NCBI GenBank assembly: GCA_964016885.1
Contig: OZ024741.1
Span: 238,080,001-238,144,000, forward strand
DNA length: 64,000 bases
Reading direction: 5' to 3'
Origin: Eledone cirrhosa
Taxonomy: Eukaryota
Shown: in pieces, positions 4,926 to 55,750 of the stretch
Layout: each line of letters begins with the position of its first letter
Numbering within the stretch: position 1 is the first letter of the stretch
Notes under the pieces: model-generated
Database searches by the model: none
Told to the model about the DNA's origin: nothing
The model's input: only the letters and a program-made list of their open reading frames with translations
Position numbers and translations under genes: made by a program

Positions 4926-5300
4926 CTTCATTGTTTAATCCTTATCCTTCACTGTAGTAGCATGTAATGGATGATGTGTATCCTGCTGTAGTGTTCCAGT
5001 ATGATGGCTGCTACTGCTGTAGTTGTGTTATAGTGTAACTGCTGCTACTGTAGTGTCCCATAATAATTGCTTCACTGCTGTAGTGTTTCAGTGTAACTGC
5101 TGCTGCTGCTGCTATGGTGTTCCTGTGTAACTGCTGATATTGCTGTGTCCCTGTGTAACTGCTGGTGTGACAGTAGCTATATGTAGTGGGAGGAGGGATG
5201 TTAACTAGATGGTGTTGTGTGAGTTATATCCCTATATCTTCCACACACACAAAAGTGTGTATTATGAACAAAGAAAAAAGCTATCAGCCTCATTTTGAAT
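4926..5300 (-). other. Putative leader exon of a seventh protocadherin gene left of the window
   Basis: Ends in CAATGAAG|GTAAG (donor at 4925-4924); paralogous to five other leader blocks. 5' boundary estimated. Confidence 0.6.
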
Positions 5301-8162: not shown

Positions 8163-10556
8163 CTGAGGGACTGGTGGAAGTCTCCTTTGTGTTGTTGAGA
8201 ATTTCCACTCATCTGGTAGCTGTTCCATCTCTGGATAAAACTGACTTTTAGATTTTATTGTCTGAAGATTTCTGTTAAATATTTCTTCTGCATTTCTCGT
8301 TATTGCCACAGGATTGTTGGTATGATACAGTAATTGTCTCATCTCAGTCTGAGACAGAAAGTTTGGTGGATTATCTGCTGTTGTAGGTGAGTTATTGGTG
8401 TGATTAATACATCTGAAAACACACAGTGTTATTGACACTACAATAGCCACAGATATTATTACAGCTGCTGCTACAATGATAATTACCCAAGTCATATTGA
8501 GGTTGTTACCAGTCTGTAAGTGGACAGCATTCAACATTGGAGATGTATCATTACTAACAAACAGTGTTAGTATGATAACAGTTGTTGCTGATTGAACTGG
8601 AGTACCACCATCTTTCACTATAAACTGTAGGTCATATGTTCCTGCATCATTTTGGTAAACTGTCCGAGAGAAAGATAAGACACCAGTGTGGGAGTTGACT
8701 GTAAACAGGTTTTTATCATTAGATCTCAGTATTCCATATGTGAGGAAAGCATTGTTTCCAGTGTCTTTGTCAGAGGCTTTCAGAATTGTGATGTCTTTTT
8801 TACTGTGTGGATGGTAGTGGACATCTAGATTGTAAGGGTCATTAATAGGAAAGGTAAAATAGGGAGCATTATCATTTTTATCTAGAATCTCAATAACAAT
8901 ATTGGCAGTGTCATTCAGAGAAGGTGTTCCATTATCTTTGACTAAAACCTGGAATTTATAGATGTCTTTTACTTCCCGATCTATTGATTGTGATGTAGAA
9001 ATAAATCCATATTTTGTAAGTTGGAAAGGAATGTTATCATTGTTGTTATCATTGATGATAGAATATGTAAGTTGACCTCCATCTCCAAGATCAGGGTCTG
9101 TAGCATTGATGAAGCCAATAGGGAAGTCAACTTTCTGGTTTTCATAGGTGAGGAATTGGAATGTATCTTTGGTAAAATGTGGCTGTACATCATTGACATC
9201 AGTTACTTTGACAGAGAAATACTTCTTAGTTTCTAGTTGAGGTGATCCCATGTCATGACATAAAATAGATACTTTATAGTGGTCGTTTATTTCTCTATCA
9301 AGATGTCCCTTAACCATCATTTTATATTCTTTAGAATCTATTTTGGCAAGTTTAAATTTATCATGTTTTAAGTCACAGCTAACCTCACCATTAGGTCCAA
9401 CATCAGTGTCAGTGACTATAACATAAGCTATAAAACTATCAATTTTACTTGCTTCTGAAACTCCTGTGGAACTTTCTGTTAAAGGTGATACAAAATCTAT
9501 ATTTATCACTGGAGCATTATTTTGGTTATTGATTACACGAATTTGAACTGCAGTTACTGAACTCAAAGGAGGTTTCCCTCCATCACGTGCTTCAATAAAT
9601 AATTTATAAAACTCAATCTTACTAAAGTGAAAATTATCATGTAAAAATATCTCTCCAGTTTTCTTATTCAATACAAAATATTTCTGGGAATTTCGAGATG
9701 TTTTATGGTTGAAATGATAAGAAATCTTTCCATTGTCTCCAGAATCTAGATCTGTAGCTTTTACTGTAATAATTGGTAAATGCCTTTGATGTGAATTATT
9801 TATAGATATGTTGTAGACTTTCTGTGAAAATACAGGTGTGTTATCATTAACATCTGTCACAGCTATGTGTACCTTGAGGGTAGCTGTTTGGGGAGGGTTC
9901 CCTCCATCTTTAGCTTCAAGTGTCAACATATATGAGTCTTTTATTTCCCTGTCTAATTTGCCTTCTAAAGATAATTCAGGTATGTAGACTCCATCATGTC
10001 GCCTTATGACAGACAGGGCAAATGGTTCTCTCTTACCTTTCTTGATCATGTACATAAGCTGAGAATTTTTTATTGAAATATCTTGATCAATGGCATTTGG
10101 AAGAGAGATTTTTGCTCCTTTTGTGTCTCTCTCAAAAAATTCAATTTTAACTTCATTGTCTGGAAATTCTGGTGGATGGTCATTGATGTCTTCTATTACT
10201 ATTTTTATTTTCAATATCTTCATAAATGTTTCTGCTTTCCTCACTGCTACTTTAACAATTCTGGAACATTCCTTGTTATATGTACACAGTGACTCAGCAT
10301 CCAGTGTCTGTGTAGTGTATAGTTTTCCTGTGTTGGTGACATTGAATAAGTGAGAACCACTTGACACTGTCCTTTGTAGTTGTGTAAATGTAATGAGAGT
10401 GTGTTGTTGATGTGTAAGAGAGTGTGTTAAGTTAGAATCAACAGCAATGTCTCCTATATAGGTGTGAGGACTGCCTTCTTCATTGAGATGGTAAGTAATG
10501 TCTATAGACAGTACAATGTTTATCAGTAGACAGAGTAGACCAATATATGTTGTCAT
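8163..10556 (-). CDS. Pcdh: Protocadherin gene 1, large coding exon (signal peptide, EC1-6, TM, juxtamembrane; 798 codons, ~873 aa spliced)
   Basis: Cadherin motifs DINDH, LDRE, DVNDN, DxDxG; EC1 C-x5-C (CTYNKEC); TM WVIIIVAAAVIISVAIVVSITLCVF; donor CAG|GTGAAT; acceptor ttttgtag 38 nt before ATG. Confidence 0.95.
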
Positions 10557-11599
10557 GTCTGGAATTCTTCATCACACTTTAGCAGTATCAATTTCTACAA
10601 AAGACATAAGAAATATTTAAAGTTGAAATATGAGTAAATCATCATGATCGTTATGGTTTTAACAATTTAATTGTTATTAGGAGGTACTGTCCTCCTGGAT
10701 GGGCCAGGGAAACTTACTTGTTACTAATGTTCCACTAGTCTATTCAAATTTTGTCTTAGTTTTTATAGTTGGATGCCTTCCCTAACATCAACTATTCTAC
10801 AGTGTATCCTGATAAAATGCTTTTAGCAACAATAGTAGCGAGGTTACCATGTCACTAACTAAAGAGTCCTGTCTAGCCTACATTATTTATTTGTGCCTAA
10901 CGTAGAAACAATTATTTACTTTCAATAGTCAACCCTTTTTCAGAGTTTATTTATTGCATTTTATAATAGCACCAGTATTGAAGAGGTTGTCAAGTCCTCA
11001 ACAAGACTAAAGAGTCCTCCCAATTTTACATTGTCTCCATTTGCTCATCAGTTACTTTACATGACAAGGTACCTCTTCACTCCATGTGGTTTCCATCATT
11101 TCAAGGCAAATGTAACAGAGATGGTGTTTGAAGTGTGTATGTTTGTGTGTAAGGGTAGAAGATGATAACCTAGAGTTGAATGTAGATAAGCTAGAGTGTG
11201 AAAGTGACAGTAATGGGTAGGAGGTTGAATAAGAAAACAGTATGAGCAATGCCAATAGGAATGAGTCATGATATGAAAGAGTGAATAATGGGTTTCACAG
11301 AGAACAAAGTGACAGATTTCAGTCATATGGTTCTTATGGAATTAGGAGAAGTTAAGCTCTGAATTTTTGCAAATAATGGGTGAAGTAGGAGAGGAAAGCA
11401 GTTCTATGAAGAAGGTGGCAATAGAAAATTATATGAATATGTTCATATCTGTTGCCAGGTATGGGTGATTAAGACAATAGTAGCAACAGCAGTAGCAGTA
11501 GTAATAATGAGGAATAGGAAACTAGTAGAGAACAGGGGCTGAAGAGATCTCTGGTAACCCACAGAAAAGTGGCAGTGATAGTTTGTCCAGTGAAAGAAA

Positions 11600-13690
11600 T
11601 AGAGATGATTTTTCAGAGTAGACCAAATGAGATTTTACCAAGAAATAAATGGAGTGTGTACAGATGAAGTGATGATACCAGATAGCAATGAAAGTCAAAA
11701 GTTTGAAGACACATTTGGAGTAAAGAGAAAGTACACAAGAAAAACGCTAAATGGTTACAAGAACTGTAATAAACAACAGTTTGCCCACAACAGAACTAGA
11801 TAATTCACTAAGGGATATGAAGGAAGTCAGAAAATTAGCAATTGGAAGTCTCCAGGACCAGACAGAATTCAAGGCTACTGGATCAAAAGATTTAGTGAAT
11901 GCCATGTACAAATAGCTGAACAATTCAACACATTGTTAAATGCTGGCCAAGTAATACTAGAGTGGCTGTCAAAGAGGAGGACAGTTCTGTCCTTGAAAGA
12001 CATCAGAAAAGAAACAACTACACACTGATATTATGCTTACTACATATGTGGAAGTTATTCACTGGAATAATCGCTGAGTCAATGTAGAAGTATCCTGAAG
12101 AAAATGGAGTTTTATCAGACAAGGTACCAAGGACCAATATTTGATATCAAAACAATATTTAGTGATTACAAGAGGAAGAAAACCAACTTGGCCATGTCGT
12201 GAATTGATCACCGGAAAGCCTATAATATGATCCCACATTCTAGGACCATGGAATGTGTGAACCTATTTGGTTTATTAGAAAAAGTATGGAGAAGCAGAAA
12301 ACAAAACTGACAGCATGTTAAAGAAGCTTAGAGTGTGTTTGGATTCAAAGGTTGCCAACAAAAGGTTAACCATTTAAGGACAACCTCAAGCTTTATGATA
12401 AGGATGAATCCCAGGTCAGTTCCTTCGTTGTTATGGTGTATATGTTTAGTGCTGACGTCAGAATGGAGTTTGGATTGAAAAAGTGAGGTGTGTTAGGTTT
12501 GAACAGTAACAAAATTAAACACATGGAGAGGTTGGTGTTGCCATTGGGGAGGTCATGAAGCAAATAGAAGAGGAAATTATACACACTTAGGGATACTGGA
12601 AATGGACAAAGTAATGGAGGAGGAAATGAAAGAAAAAGTTAAGGAGGAATACTTGTGCAGACTTGTCCTCATCTTGAAATTGAATAGACAGAATAGATAG
12701 AAGCTATCAACCCAGAGGCAGTCTCAGCCTTTAGGTATGGAACAGCGATGGTACGTGGGCAGTAGAAACACTAAACAGCTTAGATCAAAAGACATTGACT
12801 TGGCATGGAGTATTTCATCCAAAGAGTGATACAAACAGATTATATGTACCAAGAAAAAGACGAGGAAGAGATCTGATTGAGTTCGAAGACAGCATAAGAG
12901 CAAGCAGAAGAAAACAACATGGCAGGTTACCGAAAAATGCCACAGAACTGCTAGTGGTGGAAGTAAGAAGGTCAGGGTTGTGCAAAACTGAAGATTGAAA
13001 AGATAAAACACAGTACAAGTATTTGAAGATGGATAAAACTGAAAATAATTTGTGGGTAGGAGTATCAATAATAGTTGGTGCCTTAGAAACTGTAAGTAGA
13101 GATCTTAAAAAGAACATTGAACAAAGAGGGGTTGCAATGTGTGCAGAGCATTTGCAGAAAACAGCACTGCTTGGAACAGCTTGAATACTCTGGATGGTGC
13201 TGAAAAAATAAGGGCTGAAAAAATAAGAGCTGTTCACTGGCAGTAAACAGCTGACATTGTAATACATTTCCAGCATTAGAAGCTGAGTGAAGAAAACAAA
13301 AATAAAAATACCAATACAAAGCAATAGAGAACAGGAATGAGCATGTGGCTTGGAAGGTAATGCAGGAGGATGGGATTATGAATGTTTGACTGGCAGAGTA
13401 ACTGAGCATTGAAAGTGGAGATGACAAGACTGTTTGAAATGAGAGTATAATGTGAAAGTGATACCAGTTGTGATTGGGCATTAGGGTCAATCCCATTGAA
13501 ACTCCAAGTCTTCTTAAAACAGTTGGGAATACCATGCAAGATTGGTGTCATACAAAAATCGGCCTTGCCAGACACTATGCACATTTTAAGGAAAGCATTA
13601 TGTCTGAAGCCCTTGCTGGGATTTGATAGCTGACTAAATACTCCAGTGCTTTTTCCATCTACACTGCAAGACAAAGTAATAATAATGATA
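11600..13690 (+). mobile_element. Decayed R4/Dong-like non-LTR relic with two C-terminal remnants
   Basis: KSPGPDRIQGYWIKRF, TNRLYVPRKRRGRDL, IIVGAL...LQKTALLGTA*IL (~13070-13200) and VIPVVIG...IQKSALPDTMHILRKAL (~13460-13600). Confidence 0.7.
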
Positions 13691-15941
13691 GTGATGGATA
13701 ATGGGGTTGGGTAGGGTGGGCTATTTGATGCTTCCCTCCTTCATTACTCAGTCAACATGATGTAAAGTGTATTATGGTGGTATTATAGAAGAGAGTGGTA
13801 ACTAAATCCTAACCTTCCCTCTTAAAGCAAGATTTCAATAGTATGAGTTCCCGGTCAGAACCATCCTATGCCATCTTTGTCCTATGTCTTCCTTGGGCTC
13901 TCTCTTCCACAGATTTTGCTAACTTCAAGCACTTGGTACTTTTGCATACAACTGTCTTTCTCCATGTATGTACCATTGTAACTGCCTCTCTTGTACACTA
14001 ACTCTGATTACTCTCATATTCAATTTTCTCTCGGCTACATGTGTTCTGTCATTCACACACACTAATATTACACACCCAGTAGAGTATACATGTTTCATTT
14101 CTTTCTAGCCATCACAAATCTGCATTCAAGCACCATGTCCCACTACCATGAAGCATGGCAGTTCAAATAAAAGCCTTATACAATGTATAAAAATGTGAAG
14201 CACTTTATTGCCAGCAGAGGTAACAAATCCTGATTTTATTCCCCTCTGTAGTCACTTAGGCTAAGCTTTCAGTACACCCCACCCCACTGTTAATGAGGTT
14301 ACCTAAACAGAAGCAGCTATCAACTACTTCTAGTGAATCTTCTGAATATCTGAGGGAGCTTATTTCATAAAGAATGAGTAATGTTGTTGTTGACTTCTGT
14401 ACATCTATCACATACAGCAATATATTCATCCACAAGGTTCTCTATAACCCACCTGAGCCTAATGTAGGCTGTGAATATTAGATGGTACAGATTGTTTGGG
14501 TTAACAATGGCCTCACTGTCATCAATACACAGCTTACCAACATGACTAAGACAATATCAAATGTAGTTGAACCAACATGAGGAAGGACTTTTCCTTCAAC
14601 AACACCATCTCACATATGTTTGGATTATATTGGAACTAAACAGAGGTGTATGGGTCAAAATAGTAAGTTCATCATGATTCAGCACACTTCACAATAATAA
14701 GTACACATGAATGAAAGTTACACAGCATCTTGGCCTCCATGTATAGACCACATAAATGCCGCTGTTTTGTATCACAGAGCAAGGTTTTTCCGAAAAGGGT
14801 TAAGGTGATGTAATTCATTCATCTAGGATATGAGGTGTTGTATTACATTCTTCAGTGTCAACCATGATGCTTTGGTCATAAACCTAGGTGTTGCCACATG
14901 CAATTCAGGAGAGTAAACTGATTAAATACCAGCCATTAATGGTCAAATTCCATTTCACACTAGCTACTGTTAAGACCTCCAATGTTCTTGGTTCCTAGAC
15001 TACCGGCTTCTTATGCTAAATTAGAATGAGGGGATCACCATCGAAGAAGGATCCCTTTTGCAGTGGAATGGCTGATAAAATGGATACCAGTGGCTGGTTT
15101 GTTATGCCAAGGCTTTTGACATCTGATATGTAGCTATGATATACTGTTCAACCAACATTTTCTTTTCTGATTGAAAAATTAAATAAATTTCATAATGTTT
15201 AAAAAAAATGTGTAAATGTTATTTATTTCTAAATACACTTTATTAGACTCATGTGAATAATTTTTAATATATCATCTCTTCTGATGTGATAATGGTTACA
15301 TGCCTATGGCTAGATGTGGTAGCTGAATGATACAGGAGGAAAACAAACTGTACTAAAACATGGACATTTCCTACTTGCTTAAATGCTGGATGAAATATAC
15401 TGAAATTGTATTAAACTGCATTTATTGTTGTCAGAGTTAACATATTTTAACAATACACGACAATATCATTAGTTTCTATCTCACAATAAATATAGTAAGA
15501 TATATAAACTACATTATATTCATGAACATTTTTATAATGCTAAATATTCTGTTAGATATCATTAAAGCCAGAGAAAGATTAAGATATAATTACTGAATTA
15601 TTATGACAATAGCTATAAACTATATTAACATGCATTACAAACATTCAGTCTTATTGGCTATCAAACAACATATTCTAATAGTTAAATATATACACCTAGT
15701 TTGAACTGTCACATCAATATTGTATGTAAAATATATAGTAGCAATATATACAGTTTAATATTATAGTGTGTTTTATATGACTCTGATATTACAATATGTA
15801 GTCTATCTAGAGGTAATTGTACTACTACTACTACAGCAGCAGTTGTTGTTGTTAATGGTGGAAGTGATGGCAAGATCCCTCTATTTCACATGAGCCCATT
15901 TCTTGTAGGTGTATATGTGTGTCTATAAATATATATATATA

Positions 15942-16041
15942 CAGGGTATCCCCAAAAATGTTTATACACTTTGATTACCTGTAGAGGCATTATTTATTAG
16001 AATGCTGTTGAAGTGAGTATACATTTTTGGGGGACACCTTG
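15942..16041. mobile_element. 100-bp Tc1/mariner-type MITE (duplicate of 4047-4146)
   Basis: Same TIRs and TA flanks. Confidence 0.75.
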
Positions 16042-16063
16042 TATATATATTTATATATATATA

Positions 16064-16470
16064 TCTGAGTCTCTCTCCACGTATTGACCTGCTGATAGGT
16101 GGTATATTGCCATAGAGATCCTTATTTGTTGGGTGTTCCCTCCAAGAAACGTTTAAAGCAGCGCGGAGCATACGTGTGTATGCCCCGTCTAGCTTTTTCT
16201 CCAGTTTCGACGTTAGCGTCAATACGTGGACAGAGACTCAGATTTGCTGGCCACTGTTGGCGCAGCAAGGAAGAAATAGCAGGTGATGTGTTGTTATGGA
16301 GTCCATCTTATGGAGCAAGAAACGCTGGTCGTCCCAAGAAGACATACGTCAAGCAACTTGAGGACGATACTGGATGCACTGCGGAAGAACTGGCAAACGC
16401 TATGAGAGACAGAGATGGATGGAGGAAACGTGTCGTAGAAAGCCGAGCAAGCTGGACCTGATGATGGTGA
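16064..16470 (+). mobile_element. 5'-inverted RTE-like LINE 3' end (duplicate of 4169-4575)
   Basis: ORF-track pieces 15962..16222(-) and 16099..16461(+) are consecutive parts of one LINE C-terminus. Confidence 0.8.
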
Positions 16471-16801
16471 TATATATATATATATATATATCATAATTAT
16501 CATTTAATGGCTGTTTTCTCATACATATATATATAGCACACATTTTTAATTTTGTGCTTAGCCTGTTTCACTATAAACATATCATCATTCTCATCACCTT
16601 TTAGTGATAAGGCTGATGTGTTTATAATGAAACACAGGCTAAAGACAATATAAATGTTATGATTATGAACAAGACGGAGACAAAGGGAAAAAGAGAGAGA
16701 TAGGTATATAGATAGACAGATAAATAGAGAGATAGACAGACAGATAGATAGAGAGGGAGAGAGATAGATAGAGAGAGAGAGATAGAGCAAGAGAGACTTA
16801 C

Positions 16802-17175
16802 CTTCATTGTTTAATCCTTATCCTTCACTGTAGTAACATGTAATGGATGATGTGTATCCTGCTGTAGTGTTCCAGTATGACAGCTGCTACTGCTGTAGTT
16901 GTGTTATAGTGTAACTGCTGCTACTGTAGTGTCCCATAATAATTGCTTCACTGCTGTAGTGTTTCAGTGTAACTGCTGCTGCTGCTATGGTGTTCCTGTG
17001 TAACTGCTGATATTGCTGTGTCCCTGTGTAACTGCTGGTGTGACTGTAGCTATATGTAGTGGGAGGAGGGATGTTAACTAGATGGTGTTGTGTGAGTTAT
17101 ATCCCTATATCTTCCACACACACAAAAGTGTGTATTATGAACAAAGAAAAAAGCTATCAGCCTCATTTTGAATAT
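16802..17175 (-). other. Putative leader exon of protocadherin gene 1
   Basis: CAATGAAG|GTAAG donor; would splice over 6207 nt to the acceptor at 10595. 5' end estimated. Confidence 0.65.
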
Positions 17176-17270
17176 TGAAAGAAATATATAAAATCTTCCT
17201 TAACCAATAGGAAATTACTGCAATGTTGTCTGTGTAACAGAAACACAGGAAATAATAGAATCCATGTCAA
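17138..17270 (-). promoter_or_regulatory. Conserved putative promoter block, gene 1
   Basis: CCAAT at 17204-17208 within the conserved block. Confidence 0.45.
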
Positions 17271-17978: not shown

Positions 17979-18058
17979 CTATGTTGGCTGTAAATAGGTA
18001 TCTTGTACTTGTTGTCCCTTTTGTATTGTGGCTGGAACTGGATTGTCATTGGTATATT
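17979..18058 (-). CDS. Pcdh: Protocadherin gene 2, terminal coding exon
   Basis: ttttccag| acceptor, (E)YTNDNPVPATIQKGQQVQDTYLQPT*. Confidence 0.8.
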
Positions 18059-19466: not shown

Positions 19467-19614
19467 CTGGTTGTGCAGATATCTCTTCATATGGTTTAGT
19501 CTTGCCAATACTCTTGTAACCTTCTCTGCTTTTTTGTGATGTTAAGGTGTCACTGTTGTAGTTAGACATGCTGAGACTGGTGCGACCTTCATGACTATGG
19601 ATTGAATCACATCT
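19467..19614 (-). CDS. Pcdh: Protocadherin gene 2, second coding exon
   Basis: 148 nt, AG/GT bounded, RCDSIH...PYEEISAQP. Confidence 0.85.
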
Positions 19615-20151: not shown

Positions 20152-22551
20152 CTGAGGAACTGGTGGAAGTCTCCTTTGTGTTGTTGAGAATTTCCACTCA
20201 TCTGGTAGCTGTTCCATCTCTGGATAAAACTGACTTTTAGATTTTATTGTCTGAAGATTTCTGTTAAATATTTCTTCTGCATTTCTCGTTATTGCAACAG
20301 GATTGTTAGTCTGATACAGTAATTGTCTCATCTCAGTTTGGGACAGAAAGTTTGGATTATCTGCTGTTGTAGATGAGTTACTGGTGTGATTAATACATCT
20401 GAAAACACACAGTGTTATTGACACTACAATAGCCACAGATATTATTACAGCTGCTGCTACAATGATAATTACCCAAGTCATATTGAGGTTGTTACCAGAC
20501 TGTAAGTGGACAGCATTCAACATTGGAGATGTATCATTACTAACAAACAGTGTTAGTATGATAACAGTTGTTGCTGATTGAACTGGAGTGCCACCATCTT
20601 TCACTATAAACTGTAGGTCATATGTTCCTGCATCATTTTGGTAAACTGTCCGAGAGAAAGATAAGACACCAGTGTGAGAGTTGACTGTAAACAGGTTTTT
20701 ATCATTAGATCTCAGTATTCCATATGTGAGGAAAGCATTGTTTCCAGTGTCTTTGTCAGAGGCTTTTAGTATTGTGATGTCTTTCTTACTGTGAGGATGG
20801 TAGTGGACATCTAGATTGTAAGGGTCATTAATAGGAAAGGTAAAATAGGGAGCATTATCATTTTTATCTAGAATCTCAATAACAATATTGGCAGTGTCAT
20901 TCAGAGAAGGTGTTCCATTATCTTTGACTAAAACCTGGAATTTATAGATGTCTTTCACTTCCCGATCTATTGATTGTGATGTAGAAATAAATCCATATTT
21001 TGTAAGTTGGAAAGGAATGTTATCATTGTTGTTATCATTAATGATAGAATATGTAAGTTGACCTCCATCTCCAAGATCAGGGTCTGTAGCATTGATGAAG
21101 CCAATAGGGAAGTCAACTTTCTGGTTTTCATAGGTGAGGAATTGGAATGTATCTTTGGTAAAATGTGGCTGTACATCATTGACATCAGTTACTTTGACAG
21201 AGAAATATTTCTTAGTTTCTAGTTGAGGTGATCCCATGTCATGACATACAATAGATACTTTATAGTGGTCTATAGTTTCTCTATCAAGATGTCCCTTAAC
21301 AATCATTTTATATTCTTTAGATTCTATTTTGGCAAGTTTAAATTTATCATGTTTTAAATCACAGCTAACCTCACTATTAGGTCCAACATCAGTGTCAGTG
21401 ACCATAACATAAGCTATAAAACTACCAATTTTACTTGCTTCTGAAACTGCTGTGGAACTTTCTGTTAAAGGTGATACAAAATCTATATTTATCACTGGAG
21501 CATTATTTTGGTTATTGATTACATGAATTTGAACTGCAGTTACTGAACTCAAAGGAGGTTTTCCTTCATCACGTGCATCAATAAATAATTTATAAGATTT
21601 CATCTTACTAAAGCTAAAATTATCATGTAAAAATATCTCTCCAGTTTTCTTATTCAATACAAAATATTTCTGGGAATTTCGAGATGTTTTATGGTTGAAT
21701 TGATAAGAAATCTTTCCATTGTCTCCAGAATCTAGATCTGTGGCTTTTAATGTAAGAATTGGTAAATGTCTTTGATGTGAATTATTTATAGATATGTTGT
21801 AGACTTTCTGTGAAAATACAGGTGTGTTATCATTAACATCTGTCACAGCTATGTGTACTTTGAGGGTAGCTGTTTGGGGAGGGTTCCCTCCATCTTTGGC
21901 TTCAAGTGTCAACATATATGAGTCTTTTATTTCCCTGTCTAATTTGCCTTCTAAAGATAATTCAGGTATGAAGACTCCATCATGTTGCCTTGTGACAGAG
22001 AGGGCAAATGGTTCTCTCTTACCTTTCTTGACCATGTACATAAGGTGAGAATTTTTTATTGAAATATCTTGATCAATGGCATTTGGAAGAGAGATTTTTG
22101 CTCCTTTTGTGTCTCTCTCGAAAAATTCAATTTTAACTTCATTGTCTGGAAATTCTGGAGAATGGTCATTGATGTCTTCTATAACTATTTTTATCTTCAA
22201 TATCTTCATAAATGTTTCTGCTTTCCTCACTGCAAATTTGACAATTCTGGAACATTCCTTGTTATATGTACACAGTGATTCAGCATCCAGTGTCTGTGTA
22301 GTGTATAGTTTTCCTGTGTTGGTGACATTGAATAAGTAAGAACCGCTTGACACCGTCCTTTGTAGTTGTGTAAATGTAATGAGAGTGTGTTGTTGATGTG
22401 TAAGAGAGTGTGTTAAGTTGGAATCAACAGCAATGTCTCCTATATAGGTGTGAGGACTGTCTTCTTCATTGACATGGTATGTAATGTCTATAGACAGTAC
22501 AAGGGTCATCAGTAAATGTAGTAGACAGAGTAGACCAATATATGTTGTCAT
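20152..22551 (-). CDS. Pcdh: Protocadherin gene 2, large coding exon (800 codons, ~875 aa spliced)
   Basis: Six cadherin repeats plus TM; donor CAG|GTAAAT after PPVPQ; acceptor 38 nt before ATG. Confidence 0.95.
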
Positions 22552-22934
22552 GTCTGGAATTCTTCATCACACTTTAGCAGTAGAAATTTCTACAAAAGAC
22601 AAGAAATATTTTAAGTTGAAATATGAGTAAATCATCATGATCATTATGGTTTTTACATCCACTTTCCATACAGACATGGCTTACGTGGGCTGTTTTACTC
22701 CAATTTAATTGTTATTAGGAGGTACTTTCCTCCTGGATGGGTCAGAGAAACTTACTTGTTACTAATGTTCCACTAGTCTATTCAAATTTTGTCTTAGTTT
22801 TTATAGTTGGATGTCTTCCCTAACATCAATTATTCTACAGTGTGTCCTGATAAAATGCTTGTAGCAACAGTAGTAGCGAGGTTGCCATGTTACTAACTAA
22901 AGAGTCCTGTCTATCCTACATTATTTACTTTCAA

Positions 22935-28131: not shown

Positions 28132-28475
28132 CTTCATTGTTTAATCCTTATCCTTCACTGTAGTAGCATGTAATGGATGATGTGTATCCTGCTGTAGTGT
28201 TCCAGTATGATGGCTGCTACTGCTGTAGTTGTGTTATAGTGTAACTGCTGCTACTGTAGTGTCCCATAATAATTGCTTCACTGCTGTAGTGTTTCAGTGT
28301 AACTGCTGCTGCTGCTATGGTGTTCCTGTGTAACTGCTGGTGTGACAGTAGCTATATGTAGTGGGAGGAGGGATGTTAACTAGATGGTGTTGTGTGAGTT
28401 ATATCCCTATATCTTCCACACACACAAAAGTGTGTATTATGAACAAAGAAAAAAGCTATCAGCCTCATTTTGAAT
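28132..28475 (-). other. Putative leader exon of protocadherin gene 2
   Basis: CAATGAAG|GTAAG donor; 5542-nt intron to the acceptor at 22590; CCAAT at 28506-28510 upstream. Confidence 0.65.
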
Positions 28476-30240: not shown

Positions 30241-32640
30241 CTGAGGAACTGGTGGAAGTCTCCTTTGTGTTGTTGAGAATTTCCACTCGTCTGGTAGCTG
30301 TTCCATCTCTGGATAAAACTGACTTTTAGATTTTATTGTCTGAAGATTTCTGTTAAATATTTCTTCTGCATTTCTGGTTATTGCAACAGGATTGTTAGTC
30401 TGATGCAGTAATTGTCTCATCTCAGTTTGAGACAGAAAGTTTGGATTATCTGCTGTTGTAGGTGAGTTATTGGTGTGATTAATACATCTGAAAACACACA
30501 GTGTTATTGACACTACAATAGCCACAGATATTATTACAGCTGCTGCTACAATGATAATTACCCAAGTCATATTGAGGTTGTTACCAGTTTGTAAGTGGAC
30601 AGCATTCAACATTGGAGATGTATCATTACTAACAAACAATGTTAGTATGATAACAGTTGTTGCTGATTGAACTGGAGTACCACCATCTTTCACTATAAAC
30701 TGTAGGTCATATGTTCCTGCATCATTTTGGTAAACTGTCCGAGAGAAAGATAAGACACCAGTATGGGAGTTGACTGTAAACAGGTTTTTATCATTAGATC
30801 TCAGTATTCCATATGTGAGGAAAGCATTGTTTCCAGTGTCTTTGTCAGAGGCTTTCAGAATTGTGATGTCTTTCTTACTGTGTGGATGGTAGTGGACATC
30901 TAGATTGTAAGGGTCATTAATAGGAAAGGTAAAATAGGGAGCATTATCATTTTTATCTAGAATCTCAATAACAATATTGGCAGTGTCATTCAGAGAAGGT
31001 GTTCCATTATCTTTGACTAAAACCTGGAATTTATAGATGTCTTTCACTTCCCGATCTATTGATTGTGATGTAGAAATAAATCCATATTTTGTAAGTTGGA
31101 AAGGAATGTTATCATTGTTGTTATCATTGATGATAGAATATGTAAGTTGACCTCCATCTTCAAGATCAGGGTCTGTAGCATTGATGAAGCCAATAGGGAA
31201 GTCAACTTTCTGGTTTTCATAAGTGAGGAATTGGAATGTATCTTTGGTAAAATGTGGCTGTACATCATTGACATCAGTTACTTTGACAGAGAAATATTTC
31301 TTAGTTTCTAGTTGAGGTGATCCCATATCATGACATACAATAGATACTTTATAGTGGTCTATAGTTTCTCTATCAAGATGACCCTTAACAATCATTTTAT
31401 ATTCTTTAGAATCTATTTTGGCAAGTTTAAATTTATCATGTTTTAAATCACAGCTAACCTCACCATTAGGTCCAACATCAGTGTCAGAGACTATAACATA
31501 AGCTATAAAACTATCTATTTCACTGTCTTCTGAAACTGCTGTGGAACTTTCTGTTAAAGGAGATACAAAATCTATATTTATCACTGGAGCACTATTCTGG
31601 TTATTAATTACATTAATTTGAACTGTTGTTACAGAACTAAGTTGAGGATCACCTCCATCTCGTGCTTCAATAAATAATAAATAGGATTGCATCTTACTAA
31701 AGTTAAAATTATCATGTATAAATATCTCTCCAGTTTTCTTATCTAATACAAAATATTTCAGTGCATTTCGAGATGTTTTATGGTTGAAATGGTAAGAAAT
31801 CTTTCCGTTGTGTCCAGAATCTAAATCTGTGGCTTTTAAAGTAAGAATTGGTAAATGTCTTTGATGTGAATTATTTATAGATATGTTGTAGACTTTCTGT
31901 GAAAATACAGGTGTGTTATCATTAACATCTGTCACAGATATGTGTACCTTGAGTGTAGCTGTTTGGGGAGGGTTCCCTCCATCTTTAGATTCAAGAGCCA
32001 ACATGTATGTGTCTTTCATTTCCCTGTCTAATCTGTCTTCTAAAGTTAATTCAGGTACGAAAACACCATCATGTCGTCTTGTGACAGAGAGGGCAAATGG
32101 TTCTCTTTTACCTTTCTTTATCATGTATGTAATTTGAGAATTTTGTATTGAAATGTCTTTATCAATAGCATTTGGAAGAGGAATTGTAGTCCCTTTACTA
32201 TCTCTCTCTAGAAAATTAACTGTAACTTCATTCCTTGGAAATTCTGGTGAATGATCATTGATGTCTTCTATAATTATTTTTATCTTAAGAATTTTCATAA
32301 AAGTTTTTCCTTTCCTCACTGCTACTTTAACGATTCTGGAACATTCCTTGTTATATATACACAGAGACTCAGCATCCAGTGTCTGTGTAGTGTATAGTTT
32401 TCCTGTGTTGGTGACATTAAATAAGTGAGAACCACTTGACACTGTCCTTTGTAGTTGTGTAAATGTTATGAGAGTGTGTTGTTGATGTGTAAGAGAGTGT
32501 GTTAAGTTAGAATCAACAGCAATGTCACCTATATAGGTGTGAGGACTGTCTTCTTCATTGACATGATATGTAATGTCTATAGACAGTACAAGAGTCATCA
32601 GTAAATGTAGTAGACAGAGTAGACCAATATATGTTGTCAT
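30241..32640 (-). CDS. Pcdh: Protocadherin gene 3, large coding exon (800 codons, ~875 aa spliced)
   Basis: Six cadherin repeats plus TM; donor CAG|GTAAAT; acceptor 35 nt before ATG. Confidence 0.95.
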
Positions 32641-33334
32641 GTCTGGAATTCTTCACACTTTAGCTGTAGAAATTTCTACAAAAGACAAAAGAAATATTTT
32701 AAGTTGAAATATGAATAAATCATCATGATCATTATGGTTCTACATCCACTTTCCACACAGACATGGGTTAGGTGGGCTGTTATACTCCAATTTAATTGTT
32801 ATTAGGAAGTACTGTCCTCCTGGATGAGTCAGGAAACTTACTTTTTACTTAATGTTACATTAATCTATTCAAATTTTGTTTTTATAGTTGGATGCCTTCC
32901 CTAACATCAACTATTCTACAGTATGTACTGATAAAATGCTCGTAGCAACAGTAGTAGAAAGGTTGCCATGTCTTGACCAAAAGAGTCCTCTCTAGACTAC
33001 TTAATTTTGTGAAATTCTTTTCAGAGTGTATTTGTTACATTTTATAGTGACACCAGTACTGACGAGGTTGTCAAGTCCTCAATATGACTAAAGAGTCCTT
33101 TAAGGGTCACACATGGAGAAAGCCCACAAAAAACCATGGTCACCCTGATCACTAAGGCAAGTGCCCTCTGTCAGTTGTCTTCCTCCAATCTACAGGTTCA
33201 TACTCAGAGTAGGACTATTAGGAAAGGGAAAGTACAGTAGAGGACAGGGGTAAAGAAATTTCTGGTAACCTACAGAAAAGAGACAGTGATATTTTGTTCA
33301 CCGAAAGAAATATAGTTGATCTGGAAGACAATGT

Positions 33335-37524: not shown

Positions 37525-37897
37525 CTTCATTGTTTAATCCTTATCCTTCACTGTAGTAGCATGTAATGGATGATGTGTATCCTGCTGTAGTGTTCCAGTA
37601 TGATGGCTGCTACTGCTGTAGTTGTGTTATAGTGTAACTGCTGCTACTGTAGTGTCCCATAATAATTGCTTCACTGCTGTAGTGTTTCAGTGTAACTGCT
37701 GCTGCTGCTATGGTGTTCCTGTGTAACTGCTGATATTGCTGGGTCCCTGTGTAACTGCTGGTGTGACTGTAGCTATATGTAGTGGGAGGAGGGATGTTAA
37801 CTAGATGGTGTTGTGTGAGTTATATCCCTATATCTTCCACACACACAAAAGTGTGTATTATGAACAAAGAAAAAAAGCTATCAGCCTCATTTTGAAT
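37525..37897 (-). other. Putative leader exon of protocadherin gene 3
   Basis: CAATGAAG|GTAAG donor; 4849-nt intron to the acceptor at 32676; CCAAT at 37928-37932. Confidence 0.65.
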
Positions 37898-39524: not shown

Positions 39525-41924
39525 CTGAGGAACTGGTGGAAGTCTCCTTTGTGTTGTTGAGAATTTCCACTCATCTGGTAACTGTTCCATCTCTGGATAA
39601 AACTGACTTTTAGATTTTATTGTCTGAAGATTTCTGTTAAATATCTCTTCTGCATTTCTAGTTATAGCCACAGGGTTGTTAGTCTGATACAATAATTGTC
39701 TCATCTCAGTTGGAGACAGAAAGTTTGGATTATCTGCTGTTGTAGGTGAGTTATTGGTGTGATTAATACATCTGAAAACACACAGTGTTATTGACACTAC
39801 AATAGCCACAGATATTATTACAGCTGCTGCTACAATGATAATTACCCAAGTCATATTGAGGTTGTTACCAGACTGTAGGTGGACAGCATTCAACATTGGA
39901 GATGTATCATTACTAACAAACAGTGTTAGTATGATAACAGTTGTTGCTGATTGAACTGGAGTACCACCATCTTTCACTATAAACTGTAGGTCATATGTTC
40001 CTGCATCATTTTGGTAAACTGTCCGAGAGAAAGATAAGACACCAGTGTGGGAGTTGACTGTAAACAGGTTTTTATCATTAGATCTCAGTATTCCATATGT
40101 GAGGAAAGCATTGTTTCCAGTGTCTTTGTCAGAGGCTTTCAGAATTGTGATGTCTTTCTTACTGTGTGGATGGTAGTGGACATCTAGATTGTAAGGGTCA
40201 TTAATAGGAAAGGTAAAATAGGGAGCATTATCATTTTTATCTAGAATCTCAATAACAATATTGGCAGTGTCATTCAGAGAAGGTGTTCCATTATCTTTGA
40301 CTAAAGCCTGGAATTTATAGATGTCTTTCATTTCCCGATCTATTGACTGTGATGTAGAAATAAATCCATATTTTGTAAGTTGGAAAGGAATGCTATCCTT
40401 GTTGTTATCATTGATGATAGAATATGTAAGTTGACCTCCATCTCCCAGATCAGGGTCTGTAGCATTGATGAAGCCAATAGGGAAGTCAACTTTCTGGTTT
40501 TCATAGGTGAGGAATTGGAATGTATCTTTGGTAAAATGTGGCTGTACATCATTGACATCAGTTACTTTCACTGAGAAATATTTCTTAGTTTCTAGTGGAG
40601 GTGATCCCATGTCATGACATACAATAGATACTTTATAGTGGTCCTTTATTTCTCTATCAAGATGTCCCTTAATAATCATTTTATATTCCTTAGACTCTAT
40701 TTTGGTAAGTTTAAATTTATCATGTTTTAAATCACAGCTAACCTCACCATTAGGTCCAACATCAGTATCAGAGACTATAACATAAGCTATAAAACTACCA
40801 ACTTTACTTGCTTCTGAAACTGCTGTGGAACTTTCTGTTAAAGGTGATACAAAATCTATATTTATTACTGGAGCACTATTCTGGTTATTAACTATATAAA
40901 TATGAACTGTAGTAACAGATTTTAGGGGAGGTTTCCCCTCATCCTGTGCATCGATGAATAATTTATAAGATTGCATCTTACTAAAGTGAAAATTCTCATG
41001 TAAAAATATCTCTCCAGTTTTCTTATCTAGTATAAAATATTTCTGGGCAATTTGAGATGTTTTATGGTTGAAATGATAAGAAATCTTTCCATTGTCTCCA
41101 GAATCTAAATCTGTGGCTTTTAAAGTTAGAATTGGTAAATGTCTTTGATGTGAATTATTTATAGATATGTTGTAGACTTTCTGTGAAAATACAGGTGTGT
41201 TATCATTAACATCTGTCACAGCTATGTGTACCTTGAGTGTAGCTGTTTGGGGAGGGTTCCCTCTATCTTTTGCTTCTAGTGTCAACATATATGACTCCTT
41301 TAGTTCTCTGTCTAGTTTGTCTCTTAAATTTAGCTCTGGTATGAAGACACCATCATGCTGTTTTGCAATAGAGAGAGAAAATGGGTCTCTCTTATCTTTT
41401 TTAATCATGTATGTAATTTGAGAATTCTTTATTGACACATCATGATCAATGGCATTTGGAAGAGAGATTTTATCTCCTTTACTGTCTCTCTCAAAAAATT
41501 CAATTTTCACTTCATTTTGTGGAAATTCTGGAGAATGGTCATTGATGTCTTCTATAATTATTTTAATCTTCAATATCTTCAGAAATGTTTCTGCTTTCCT
41601 CACTGCTACTTTAACAATTCTGGAACATTCCTTGTTATATGTACACAGAGATTCAGCATCCAGTGTCTGTGTAGTGTATAGTTTTCCTGTGTTGGTGACA
41701 TTGAACAAGTGAGAACCACTTGACACTGTCCTTTGCAGTTGTGTAAATGTAATGAGAGTGTGTTGTTGATGTGTAAGAGAGTGTGTTAAGTTAGAATCAA
41801 CAGCAATGTCTCCTATATAGGTGTGAGGACTGTCTTCTTCATTGACATGATATGTAATGTCTATAGACAGTACAATGTTTATCAGTAAATTTAGTAGACA
41901 GAGTAGACCAATATATGTTGTCAT
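39525..41924 (-). CDS. Pcdh: Protocadherin gene 4, large coding exon (800 codons, ~875 aa spliced)
   Basis: Six cadherin repeats plus TM; donor CAG|GTAAAT; acceptor 38 nt before ATG. Confidence 0.95.
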
Positions 41925-42332
41925 GTCTGGAATTCTTCCTCACACTTTAGCTGTAGAAATTTCTACAAAAAACAACAGAAATATTTATAGTCGAAAATTA
42001 AACAATAATTGTGTAAATGCTTTTTCTACTTTCAATATGTCTTCATGAGAACCAACTAAACATTTAAAAATATATCATTTGACAAACTATAATACAGTAT
42101 ATAGGTAGAGTTATTTCCCTGTAATAAATATATCGTCAAAGATACGAGATGACCCTTTTCGAATTACTTAACAAAAATCCCAAGAAACCTTCTTTGAGAT
42201 GCAACCTTATAGTAATTCAATTAAATCATCATAAGTGTGAGCTTTAAATTAAATTTTTATATCAATTACCAATATGGAAACTTTTGGTTTATTAAAAGAA
42301 ACCAAATTTTCAATATTCTCTTTTAATTACCG

Positions 42333-46397: not shown

Positions 46398-46690
46398 CTT
46401 CATTGTTTAATCCTTCACTGAAGTTGTGTATAATGTATGTTGTGTATCCTGCTGTAGTGTTCCAGTGTGACTGCTGCTACTGTGTTCAAGCATTACTGCT
46501 GCTGCTGTGGTGTTCCAGTGTAACAGCTGCTTCTGTAGAAGTGTAACTGCTGATGTGACAGTGGTTGTATGTAGTGGGAGGAGAGTTGTTAGCCAGATGG
46601 TGTTGGGGTGGTAGTTACAACATGATGTCTTCCACACACACAATAGTTTGTATGATGAACAAAGAAAAAAGCTATCAGCCTCATTTTGAA
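46398..46690 (-). other. Putative leader exon of protocadherin gene 4
   Basis: CAATGAAG|GTAAG donor; 4435-nt intron to the acceptor at 41963; CCAAT at 46722-46726. Confidence 0.65.
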
Positions 46691-49133: not shown

Positions 49134-51530
49134 CTGAGGAACTGGTGGAAGTCTCCTTTGTGTTGTTGAGAATTTCCACTCATCTGGTAGCTGTTCCATC
49201 TCTGGATAAAACTGACTTTTAGATTTTATTGTCTGAAGATTTCTGTTAAATATCTCTTCCGCATTTCTGGTTATTGCAACAGGGTTGTTGGTCTGATACA
49301 GTAATTGTCTCATCTCAGTCTGAGAGAGAAAGTTTGGATTATCTGCTGTTGTAGGTGAGTTATTGGTGTGATTAATACATCTGAAAACACACAGTGTTAT
49401 TGACACTACAATAGCCACAGATATTATTACAGCTGCTGCTACAATGATAATTACCCAAGTCATATTGAGGTTGTTACCAGTCTGTAAATGGACAGCATTC
49501 AACATTGGAGATGTATCATTACTAACAAACAATGTCAGTATGATAACAGTTGTTGCTGATTGAATTGGAGTACCACCATCTTTCACTATAAACTGTAGGT
49601 CATATGTTCCTGCATCATTTTGGTAAACTGCTCGAGAGAAAGATAAGACACCAGTGTGGGAGTTGACTGTAAACAGGTTTTTATCATTAGATCTCAGTAT
49701 TCCATATGTGAGGAAAGCATTGTTTCCAGTGTCTTTGTCAGAGGCTTTCAGAATTGTGATGTCTTTCTTACTGTGTGGATGGTAGTGGACATCTAGATTG
49801 TAAGGGTCATTAATAGGAAAGGTAAAATAGGGAGCATTATCATTTTTATCTAGAATCTCAATAACAATATTGGCAGTGTCATTCAGAGAAGGTGCTCCAT
49901 TATCTTTGACTAAAACCTGGAATTTATAGATGTCTTTCACTTCCCGATCTATTGATTGTGATGTAGAAATAAATCCATATTTTGTAAGTTGGAAAGGAAT
50001 GTTATCATTGTTGTTATTGATGATAGAATATGTAAGTTGACCTCCATCTCCCAGATCAGGGTCTGTAGCATTGATGAAGCCAATAGGGAAGTCAACTTTC
50101 TGGTTTTCATAGGTGAGGAATTGGAATGTATCTTTAGTAAAATGTGGCTGTACATCATTGACATCAGTTACTTTCACTGAGAAATATTTCTTAGTTTCTA
50201 GTTGAGGTGATCCCATGTCGTGACATACAATAGATACTTTATAGTGGTCTATAGTTTCTCTATCAAGTTGCCCCTTAATAATTAAATTGTATTCTTTAGA
50301 ATCTATTTTATTAAGTTTAAATTTATCATGTTTTAAATCACAGCTAACCTCACCATTAGGTCCAACATCAGTGTCAGTGACCATAACATAAGCTATAAAA
50401 CTACCAACTTTACTTGCTTCTGAAACTGCTGTGGAACTTTCTGTTAAGGGTGATACAAAATCTATATTTATCAATGGTTCATTATTATGGTTATCAATTA
50501 CATAAATATGAACTGTGGTAACAGACTTTAGAGGAGGTTTCCCCTCATCTTGTGCATCAATGAATAATTTGTATGATTGTTTCTTACTAAAGTGAAAATT
50601 ATCATGTGAAAATATCTCTCCAGTTTTCTTATTTAATATAAAATATTTCTGGGCACTTTGAGATGTTTTATGGTTGAAATGATAAGAAATCTTTCCATTG
50701 TGTCCAGAATCTAGATCTGTGGCTTTTACTGTAAGAATTGGTAAATGTCTTTGATGTGAATTATTTATAGATATGTTGTAGACTTTCTGTGAAAATACAG
50801 GTGTGTTATCATTAACATCTGTCACAGTTATGTGTACCTTGAGTGTAGCTTTTTGGGGAGGGTTTCCTCCATCTTTGGCTTCAAGTGTCAACATATATGT
50901 GTCTTTTATTTCCCTATCTAATCTGCTTTCCAAAGTTAATTCTGGTATGAAGACACCATCATGTTGTTTTGTGACAGAGAGAGAAAATGGTTCTCTCTTA
51001 CTTTTCTTTATCATGTATGTAATTTGAGAATTTCTTATTGAAATATCTTTATCAATAGCATTTGGAAGAAGTATTTTATCACCTTTTCTAGCTATCTCAA
51101 AAAATTCCATTTCCACTTCATTTTGTGGAAATTTTGGTGAATGGTCATTAATGTCTTCTATTAATATTTTAATTTTTAAGATCTTCATAAACATTTCTGC
51201 TTTCCTCACTGCTACTTTAACAATTCTGGAACATTCCTTGTTATATGTACACAATGACTCAGCATCCAGTGTCTGTGTAGTGTATAGTTTTCCTGTGTTG
51301 GTGACATTGAACAAGTGAGAACCACTTGACACTGTCCTTTGTAGTTGTGTAAATGTTATGAGAGTGTGTTGTTGATGTGTAAGAGAGTGTGTTAAGTTAG
51401 AATCAACAGCAATGTCTCCTATATAGGTGTGAGGACTGTCTTCTTCATTGACATGATATGTAATGTCTATAGACAGTACAAATGTCATCAGTAAATATAG
51501 TAGACAAAGTAGACCAATATATGTTGTCAT
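49134..51530 (-). CDS. Pcdh: Protocadherin gene 5, large coding exon (799 codons, ~874 aa spliced)
   Basis: Six cadherin repeats plus TM; donor CAG|GTAAAT; acceptor 38 nt before ATG. Confidence 0.95.
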
Positions 51531-53239
51531 GTCTGGAATTCTTCATTAAACTTTAGCAGTAGAAATTTCTACAAAAGATAGAAATATTTAAATAAAACAT
51601 CTTATACTTAAAATAACAAATGTGTAAATGCTTTTTCTGCTTTTAATATACCTTCATTAGAACCAACTAAACAACTGAAAATATATCATTTGACTAACTA
51701 TAATAAAGTATATAGTTTATATATATTTCCTTGGAATATATATTATATGCCAAAGATTCAAGATAATGTATATATTACTATAAGTGTCAGCTGTAAATTT
51801 AATTTTTTCTCTCAATTGTTTATATGGAAACTTTTGTTTATTATTATAAGAAAACTAATTTTGAATGTTCTACTTTAAATTTTTATGCAGGTATGTAGCT
51901 TAGTGGTTACAGCATTAGATTCGCAATCATGAAGTTTTGAGTTCGATTGCTGGACAGGCAATGAGTTACGTCTTTGAGCAAACACTTATTTCACCTTGCT
52001 CTTTCTGCAATGGAAAGAAACATTGTTTCCTAAGTCTGTTTTGAAGAATTCCACGTCACACAATAAGCAAATGAGGTCTGGAATCTTGTTGATTGATCGA
52101 TTTTAAATTTACCATTGACAGGAAAGAAACAGTTATAACTTTTCAAGTTACAATGAGGTATTTTTAGACGGAAATATTTAGCATCTATTTGTAACAGATT
52201 AATTAAATAATACACCAAATGTCTAGAATACAATTCAAATGATACAATATGATAATGTTTAGTATTGAATAACAAATAAATATATATCGTCCAGTGTGGA
52301 ATATAAAAATCTAATCAGAGTTTTCAGGTAAGTTATGTTTCTTAGAAAGCTAATAAAACCAGCTTCAAATACACATTGTCTAATATAGTCAGAGTACCAC
52401 AAGATTTTGAAGAGGAGTATTGTGCATTAATTCAATCCACAGAACCTGACTGTAAATTGCTTGAGTTAATTAGAACACCCCTGTGTGGTTGCTACTTTGT
52501 TAATAACAAAAGTTAAATATCACTCAGATCAAACCATAGAATCTTGAAAATAAAAGATACACAAGTTGTATATTTGCTATACCTAAGAAAAAGTTGGGAT
52601 GGTCATGATTAAAAGGTTTTGTCAATATATCTGCTCAATTAAGCCTGTTTGTTGTTATTTAAAGACATCATTCTTTAGTCACTGGGCACTGTATTGGAAG
52701 AATCGGTAGAGTGTCTGACAGCATACTTTGTGGCATATAGCCCTTAACGTTCTGAGTTCCAATTTGTATTTTATGCTTACGGGTTTGATAAAATAAAGTA
52801 CCAGTAATGCACTGGGGTTGTTCAATCGTCTTGCCCCTTCTCTGTTACTAATGAAGATGAAGTAGTTAGTGTTAAGCCTGAGTTTGATTCCCCCAGTGTG
52901 TACTCTAGCCAACAAGAGTACTATCTACAGTTTCTTTATCTGCTAGAAACAGCAGCTACGTTTCTCTTATATCACAACCTATCATATATTCTAAGAACAT
53001 ACATATTAAAATAAATGATCATGACTGGAATGCGTTTAACATGGGCTTAAAAAAGACTGCAGCTCTGAGTAGGAGATCTAGAGAAAAGTGTTTAGTGTGG
53101 GGTTGTGCTGGGGTAAGAAACTGTAATGATGAGAACTTTAGGAGGGGATAATGCTCTAAGTAAAGATGGTAAAGAGTATGGTAATCCAAAGAAAATAAAA
53201 CCATTACAGTAATAATAATAATAATAATGATTTCTTAAA

Positions 53240-55456: not shown

Positions 55457-55750
55457 CTTCATTGTTTAATCCTTTACTGTAGTTGTGTATTATGGATGTT
55501 GTGTATCCTGCTGTAGTGTTCCAGTGTGACTGCTGCTACTGTGTTCAAGCATTACTGCTGCTGCTGTGGTGTTCCAGTGTAACAGCTGCTTCTGTAGAAG
55601 TGTAACTGCTGATGTGACAGTGGTTGTATGTAGTGGGAGGAGAGTTGTTAACCAGATGGTGTTGGGGTGGTAGTTACAACATGATGTCTTCCACACACAC
55701 AATAGTGTGTATGATGAACAAAGAAAAAATCTATCAGCCTCACTTTGAAT
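55457..55750 (-). other. Putative leader exon of protocadherin gene 5
   Basis: CAATGAAG|GTAAG donor; 3888-nt intron to the acceptor at 51569; CCAAT at 55781-55785. Confidence 0.65.

Follow-up and report, generated by a model that had tools for sequence, protein, structure and literature searches.

The 64,000-nucleotide stretch of the Eledone cirrhosa genome analysed here (C2:238080001-238144000 of a 3.0-Gb genome, GenBank OZ024741.1; hereafter the window) carries six large minus-strand open reading frames (ORFs) of 802-828 codons each, and raises the question of whether a short upstream open reading frame (uORF), split by an intron and ending on the start codon of each main ORF, is a genuine and selected part of these genes. 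The main ORFs encode protocadherins. The gene 1 translation has a signal peptide, cadherin repeats and a transmembrane segment. In its homologs, which their sources call protocadherins, PF08266 (N-terminal Cadherin_2, also matched in the genome) and PF00028 are present. Its top relatives, protocadherin beta-15-like, are from Octopus sinensis (87% identity) and Argonauta hians (84%), both with the same start methionine as gene 1. The copies in the window are mutually 91-95% identical in protein. The uORF of the window genes is real and, for the reasons given below, probably under selection.

In all six window genes the leader exon ends in TAA-ACA-ATG-AAG/GT (a slash marks the exon boundary) and the exon-2 acceptor sits 35-38 nucleotides (nt) upstream of the main ATG; joined in silico, the two exons give a 14-15-codon uORF ending in ATGA. 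In gene 1 the donor context is TAA ACA ATG AAG/GTAAGT and the acceptor reads TTTTGTAG/AAATTG; first exon base 10594 follows a pyrimidine tract and TAG and lies 38 nt from the ATGA (Table 1). On the minus strand a 14-base pattern of the leader end occurs six times against ~1.6 expected (0/100 shuffles reach six), at exon ends 4926, 16802, 28132, 37525, 46398 and 55457, and a 15-base pattern ending in ATGA, with 0.3 occurrences expected, is found exactly at each of the six main starts. The leader ending at 4926 is a seventh, serving a gene left of the window, and the gene 6 leader was found 308 nt past the right end of the window (C2:238144308), completing a spliced uORF that encodes MKNFLQLKCDEEFQT. 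A preliminary description of the window had placed the leader ends of genes 1-5 at these coordinates, derived their five uORF peptides, with the TGA overlapping the main ATG, noted a single 3-nt indel (gene 3) and no premature stop, and found the gene 6 acceptor side open with its leader outside. Minus-strand reading, the pattern counts, alignment and in-silico splicing reproduced all of these points, the overlap at all six main starts. Further upstream ATGs (uATGs) in the leader and a second, out-of-frame uATG in exon 2 had been overlooked. In-frame TGA codons are present in the main frame just upstream of the main ATG, which thus cannot be extended upstream. Use of the leader ATG as the true protein start via another acceptor was considered and rejected, as the main frame carries TGAs upstream and no downstream AG restores the frame. 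Elsewhere in the leader, a CAG/AGC triplet run (window 16955-16990) varies by 3 nt among paralogs, and the leaders of genes 4-5 are without two blocks that genes 0-3 have.

Splicing of leader to exon 2 was traced in contigs of X22, a sequencing run of the same species and of unrecorded type, in which about half of the sampled words of the gene are present. Coverage in X22 is far higher on exons than on introns and its contigs skip introns, with spliced 3' exons also represented, so that the run behaves as RNA. Among contigs aligned to window 16780-17800, one of 531 nt follows the leader from 17233 to exactly 16802 and continues with 96 letters from elsewhere, the first 30 of which are the reverse complement of the exon-2 start of a paralog with its ATG at C2:238056373; this exon-2 variant is unique to that paralog among the 49 genes of the cluster described below. 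In that paralog the leader thus runs straight into the predicted acceptor without an intervening exon, and the resulting uORF encodes MKKFLQLKCEEFQT. The preliminary description had proposed junction reads as a check, and this was borne out by one contig of a close paralog with identical splice sites; the junctions of the window genes themselves are predicted from that identity. By this route, an AUG before the main AUG in spliced mRNA, followed by an in-frame stop, was found, as a uORF is defined. The contig gives a leader length of at least ~430 nt, a minimum because contigs cannot reveal the transcription start. Contigs of related organisms on the leader end ~42 nt before the donor in runs X1 and X23, and X6 gave none there.

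Within the window alone, chance could account for the shared design, the copies being young. The comparison was widened to 660 kb around the window, with a coding sequence (CDS) tree of 48 genes, 46 of which were scored for both halves of the uORF. The cluster consists of 49 protocadherin genes, all on the minus strand (C2:238.03-238.585 Mb), and a leader homolog lies upstream of 48/49. The most conserved part of the leader is its end, AAGGATTAAAC-A-ATG-NNG/GTAAGT. A leader ATG followed by a sense codon (AAG, CAG, CTG, AAA or TGG) is present in 34/46 scored genes, and in 32 of these 34 the frame is open through exon 2 to a stop (TGA, once TAA) sharing bases with the first in-frame ATG; in the other two genes the spacer measures 34 and 37 nt. 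The main start reads ATGA in all 34, one gene having TAATG as well, and uORF length across spliced cluster leaders is 12-16 codons. In the 35 genes with ATG plus a sense codon, the spacer (the exon-2 untranslated region, UTR) is 38 (21 genes), 35 (seven), 32 (two), 41 or 29 nt long, among others, and equals 2 mod 3 in 32/35; the 35-nt class was found in three separate clades. In two genes one base substitution was enough to create both an in-frame ATG further upstream and a new TGA overlapping it. The earlier claim of a uORF in every gene thus holds for the window and fails for the cluster, where 12/46 pairable genes are without a usable uATG. Likewise, the caveat that the copies are young and their conservation weak evidence applies inside the window only, since cluster subfamilies with the same design are 76-81% identical to window gene 1 in protein. 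This is lower than the 84-87% identity to the best hits in other octopods, from which we infer that the design would predate those species splits if rates are comparable, the argument being one of identities and not of a dated tree.

A genome search with a 19-base degenerate leader pattern gave 34 matches, 31 of them in C2:238.03-238.58 Mb (reversed-pattern control, 1). Of five matches that were outlying or in unexplored places (2 on C1, 1 on C14, 2 on C2) only that at C2:238379212 has a protocadherin ORF within 10 kb, and by this pattern search the leader motif is confined to the cluster. In other protocadherin clusters and chromosomes, 20 5' ends were sampled from 39 PF08266 matches and 19 start codons read: ATGT 14 times, ATGA four times and ATGG once. 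The ATGA design is thus not general to the family, leaders there not having been sought. Within the cluster, the MNDNNSLKF subfamily (L031-L036) has a second leader-like segment, ending ATGAAA/GTAAGA, between leader and large exon (C2:238514554, 238540648, 238525527, 238550676 and 238562864), which could be an extra exon altering the uORF there. At C2:238156820-238161351 a probe-matching 5' end (L008) with no ORF of at least 400 codons behind it, and with leader end AATTAAG instead of AATGAAG, is probably a decayed cluster member.

Retention of the open frame was compared with neutral expectation by simulating neutral substitution in the 12 upstream codons on the CDS tree, with rates set to give 1.8-2.6 parsimony changes per site (observed for scaling, ~2.3 per site over codons -2 to -8). 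Premature stops are expected in 13-16 of 34 tips and were observed in one. The probability of one broken tip or fewer is 0.028 at the lower rate, and none of 400 runs at the higher rate gave so few. The frame has thus been kept open, and indels held to multiples of three, beyond neutral expectation, and the frame conservation in more divergent paralogs that the preliminary description had put forward as a test is seen (32/34 intact, lengths changing by 3n, simulation P of at most 0.03). This is, in our view, good evidence for retention of the open frame and of the point where it ends. Signs that the encoded peptide matters are suggestive. Parsimony changes in uORF codons -2 to -6 are distributed 12:2:16 over codon positions 1:2:3, both position-2 changes being the new-ATG events described above, and the uORF tail in most genes is [KR]-[CS]-[ND]-E-E-[LFI]-Q-x before the stop. 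A tree-free column count gave 21:15:20, without periodicity, with rows carrying indels or shifted starts misaligned, and the anchored parsimony count was used instead. Codon -2 (CAR) also provides the -3 purine of the main start context, which counts against a strong coding signal.

Twelve of the 46 scored genes have no usable uATG, eight with ATA-TAG, TTA-TAG or AAA-TAG and four with ATG-TAG at the leader end. The exon-2 frame is closed or shifted (spacers of 39 or 42 nt) in ten of these 12, and six have ATGG in place of ATGA. The two halves of the uORF thus tend to decay together in these alignments, as expected if they are kept only as a unit.

Several observations weigh against a functional uORF. 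The state of the uATG changes only four times on the tree, and an independent-pairs test of uATG against frame, with four contrasts, gave a median p of 0.5; with so few changes the match between uATG loss and frame decay (10/12) cannot reach significance. The 12 genes without a usable uATG retain intact full-length protocadherin ORFs, and the uORF is therefore dispensable at least there. If the leader is ~430 nt long, 3-8 other uATGs would precede that of the split uORF, which would then not be the first AUG: three more are found in genes 1-3 (at about -403, -174 and -76) and up to eight in genes 4-6, and none is conserved across subfamilies. Per site, uORF codon positions 1 and 3 have undergone 2.4 and 3.2 changes, more than the 1.68 of third positions in the CDS; periodicity is lacking at codons -7 and -8 (3:4:3 and 3:4:1), and peptide conservation is weak. 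The junction comes from one contig of one run of unrecorded type and from a paralog ~24 kb left of the window, and the leader portion of that contig is a mosaic of paralog variants, a pattern expected from assembling near-identical copies or from allelic variation.

Part of this is what would be expected of a neutral by-product, with a leader ATG and an open frame that descend from one ancestral gene, were spread by tandem duplication and gene conversion, and are tolerated among many uATGs without any selected role. The non-conserved uATGs of the leaders and the four contrasts fit such an origin, as do the high protein identity of the window copies, the near-identical segmental duplication of one gene pair, a whole subclade that lost the uORF yet kept its genes, and the rate of change at most uORF sites, which is at or above that of CDS third positions. 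It does not account for one stop-broken gene where 13-16 of 34 are expected, for spacer lengths that change in multiples of three in 32/35 genes, for a codon position 2 that is nearly invariant over five consecutive codons, or for a design common to subfamilies only 76-81% identical, and we consider it unlikely.

A different constraint on the same bases is suggested by the motif that precedes the leader ATG. AAGGATTAAAC (window 16811-16821) is nearly invariant in all 48 leaders found and in all subfamilies. GGATTA may resemble a homeodomain site. Conservation of AAGGATTAAAC extends to leaders whose ATG is lost, a further point against the uORF, as the ATG may in part ride on another constraint. 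The conserved bases might thus have a non-translational role, AAGGATTAAAC...NAG/GTAAGT as splice context or as a binding site for a protein on DNA or RNA and the purine-rich GAAGAA shortly before the main ATG as an exonic splicing enhancer acting on the large exon, with the uORF incidental. GAA repeats can act as splicing enhancers, the best-conserved stretch of exon 2 is purine-rich, and codon -2 doubles as the source of the -3 purine. Such a role leaves unexplained that the 35-41-nt spacer changes in steps of three and that stops are avoided in one frame only, both other frames carrying stops; we rate it as quite unlikely.

Selection on a translated uORF remains our preferred explanation, and with modest confidence we take the split uORF to be likely translated, in which case it would limit or gate protocadherin synthesis. 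The preliminary description had likewise suggested control by translational repression or termination-reinitiation. Scanning ribosomes would start at the leader AUG, which has an A at -3, and elongate across the exon junction and over an out-of-frame AUG at -16. They would terminate with the A site on UGA, which leaves the main AUG two bases ahead of the P site. Because no spacer is available for picking up a new initiator tRNA, the majority would drop off and the uORF would repress; protocadherin would come from a minority of ribosomes that restart at the overlapping AUG or bypass both upstream AUGs by leaky scanning. Since premature stops are avoided, selection may be acting on termination at the main AUG itself or on the C-terminal residues [ND]-E-E-[LFI]-Q; a simple brake would tolerate earlier stops, and their avoidance fits a role for the place of termination.

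The AUG at -16 in this scheme is the second uATG of exon 2, located 16 or 13 nt before the main ATG (window 10570-10572, and in the same place in genes 2, 5 and 6), with a purine at -3 and opening an out-of-frame ORF of ~30 codons that overlaps the CDS. An ATG in this frame is found in 39/49 genes, including the clade without a leader uATG, and is about as widespread as the leader uATG. It is partly a by-product of the [ND]-E codons and was lost on several occasions. The start region has no conserved RNA fold (4 pairs without covariation, -1.69 kcal/mol), and window 10300-17900 no Rfam family. TGGGA, the core of the viral termination upstream ribosomal binding site (TURBS), is present within 100 nt upstream in 0/48 spliced leaders and within ~340 nt in 7/48.

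Because the uORF terminates ahead of two exon junctions, nonsense-mediated decay of the mRNA would be a likely side effect. Were this instead the main action, the TGA before the exon 2-3 and 3-4 junctions would trigger decay and trim weakly transcribed members, and translational coupling would be irrelevant. The uORF stop does lie ~2.4 kb upstream of two confirmed exon junctions, and uORFs can trigger decay, according to the available portions of PMC3738444 and 10.1101/2021.09.16.460672. However, any stop in the 5'UTR would do so, which leaves both the avoidance of premature stops and the retention of the overlap without explanation, and an action mainly at the mRNA level seems to us the least probable of the accounts weighed here.

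A bolder reading, which we think very unlikely, would make the uORF, instead of a simple brake, the required delivery route to the main start as well as a switch. Its translation would carry ribosomes over the -16 AUG, which otherwise would capture scanning ribosomes, and termination at the overlapping UGA would set them down on the main AUG. The [ND]-E-E-[LFI]-Q tail would slow termination, holding a paused ribosome on the start codon until released. If true, ~30 protocadherin genes would share one translational on/off control on top of promoter choice, possibly dependent on reinitiation factors or neuronal activity.

Table 1 Positions in the window of the split uORF, its host exons and the associated gene 2 exon (junctions predicted except where contigs are named).
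Feature	Position	Strand	Basis or remark
Gene 1 leader exon (non-coding apart from uATGs)	16802..17233	-	3' end exact, 5' end minimum; donor AAG/GTAAGT, paralog contig of X22 leaves genome at 16802
Gene 1 uORF start codon, context ACAATGA, in-frame TAA two codons upstream	16805..16807	-	Sequence, pattern, alignment
Gene 1 intron 1, 6207 nt, GT..AG	10595..16801	-	Sequence and in-silico splice
Gene 1 exon-2 5'UTR, 38 nt: uORF codons 3-14 and first two bases of codon 15	10557..10594	-	
Gene 1 ATGA: main ATG 10556-10554 overlaps uORF stop TGA 10555-10553	10553..10556	-	
Gene 1 large-exon coding part (signal peptide, cadherin repeats, transmembrane segment)	8163..10556	-	Donor after ..PPVPQ placed by gene 2 homology
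Gene 2 uATG, leader exon end 28132	28135..28137	-	
Gene 2 exon-2 5'UTR (22552-22589) and ATGA (22548-22551)	22548..22589	-	
Gene 3 uATG, leader exon end 37525	37528..37530	-	
Gene 3 exon-2 5'UTR (35 nt, 3-nt deletion) and ATGA	32637..32675	-	
Gene 4 uATG, leader exon end 46398	46401..46403	-	
Gene 4 exon-2 5'UTR and ATGA	41921..41962	-	
Gene 5 uATG, leader exon end 55457	55460..55462	-	
Gene 5 exon-2 5'UTR and ATGA	51527..51568	-	
Gene 6 exon-2 5'UTR and ATGA; leader (ATG-AAG/GT) outside window	59649..59690	-	
Seventh leader uATG, exon end 4926; its large exon left of window, ATG at C2:238078390	4929..4931	-	
Gene 2 third exon, joined to 20152 upstream and 18058 downstream	19467..19614	-	Spliced contigs of X22, X1, X6

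Downstream of the large exon, gene 2 is spliced from 20152 to 19614 and then from 19467 to 18058, as seen in contigs of three runs (X22, X1 and X6). These 3' exons occupy window 17798-20152 on the minus strand, between the large exon of gene 2 and the gene 1 leader, and their position upstream of that leader indicates that each gene has private 3' exons; the leader of the next gene begins a few hundred bases past them. Gene 1 is nearly identical to a gene 22.5 kb leftward (window 8139-17233 versus C2:238065587-238074300), the pair showing 100% identity over a 171-nt probe and tree branches of ~0.003, and the two appear to reflect a very recent duplication of a two-gene unit. Introns and intergenic segments contain high-copy repeats (window 15837-16503, 17838-19838, 22507-23840 and 26509-27842), over which contig depth ranges from hundreds to hundreds of thousands in RNA-like and DNA-like runs alike. 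Two unrelated long ORFs of 472 and 542 codons inside the cluster (C2:238047963-238049381, plus strand, and C2:238322053, minus strand) look like mobile-element genes.

Cephalopod protocadherin expansions, whose regulation has been little described, are a leading candidate for how neurons are given identities outside vertebrates. If the interpretation favoured here is true, a uORF ending on the start codon of ~30 genes would add a translational layer with a mutable handle (uAUG, frame and stop position). For annotation, the element is invisible to unspliced ORF scans and to gene models that drop a non-coding first exon. A literature search, judged partly by titles and the starts of abstracts, found no paper linking protocadherins with uORFs in cephalopods; in the available parts of PMC6339937 and PMC9795677 UTRs are unmentioned, and 'exon' occurs only in the former, once, as 'multi-exonic'. 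uORFs, intron-split conserved uORFs and cellular stop/start overlaps are already known, and what is new is the family-wide use of such a uORF in a cephalopod protocadherin cluster.

Comparison with published systems, drawn from portions of the sources cited, places the element between several of them. Initiation and reinitiation are summarised in PMC5972666 and PMC10275272; outside the present case, AUGA and UAAUG overlaps are familiar from viral termination-reinitiation, which requires TURBS. The stop/start geometry in the viral systems (caliciviruses, influenza B; PMC10275272, PMC5972666) is the same as here, where stop and start likewise overlap; however, the upstream ORF is long in the viruses and has 14-15 codons in the window genes, and the UGGGA core is absent here within 100 nt upstream. 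Among cellular stop/start-overlap uORFs, the last uORF of the long SLAMF1 leader (UGAUG; PMC5972666) is similarly short (<30 codons), lies among several uORFs and shares bases with the start codon. Ordinary reinitiation should be inefficient there for want of a spacer, and the same is expected here. The present case differs in that the overlap is AUGA with three shared bases, and in that the uORF is split by an intron and recurs in ~32 paralogs of one cluster instead of a single gene. Conserved-peptide uORFs (Hayden and Jorgensen 2007, PMC2075485), in some of which introns are known, resemble the present one in C-terminal conservation and a fixed stop position, whereas here selection on the peptide is suggestive (position-2 invariance over five codons) and was seen among paralogs of one genome. 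Leaders of the GCN4/ATF4 type (PMC5972666), in which a permissive uORF comes before an inhibitory one that overlaps the main ORF, are similar in containing several uORFs, one of them overlapping the main ORF out of frame, as does that of the -16/-13 ATG. In the octopus genes the arrangement is nested instead of serial, the uORF reading through the inhibitory AUG to end on the main AUG, and spacer-dependent delayed reinitiation is impossible. Start-stop elements (10.1101/2021.07.26.453809) have a counterpart in the ATG-TAG at the leader end of four cluster paralogs, where it replaces the long uORF, but in none of the six window genes.

Octopus protocadherins are arranged head-to-tail, according to the portions of PMC6339937 consulted. 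Vertebrate clustered protocadherins likewise stand in tandem, head to tail, and each gene has its own start region upstream of a single large ectodomain exon. In vertebrates, variable exons are joined to shared constant exons. Given its private 3' exons, the octopus cluster is unlike these in having no shared constant exons; instead, each gene ends in 3' exons of its own, and a separate non-coding leader exon stands before each large exon.

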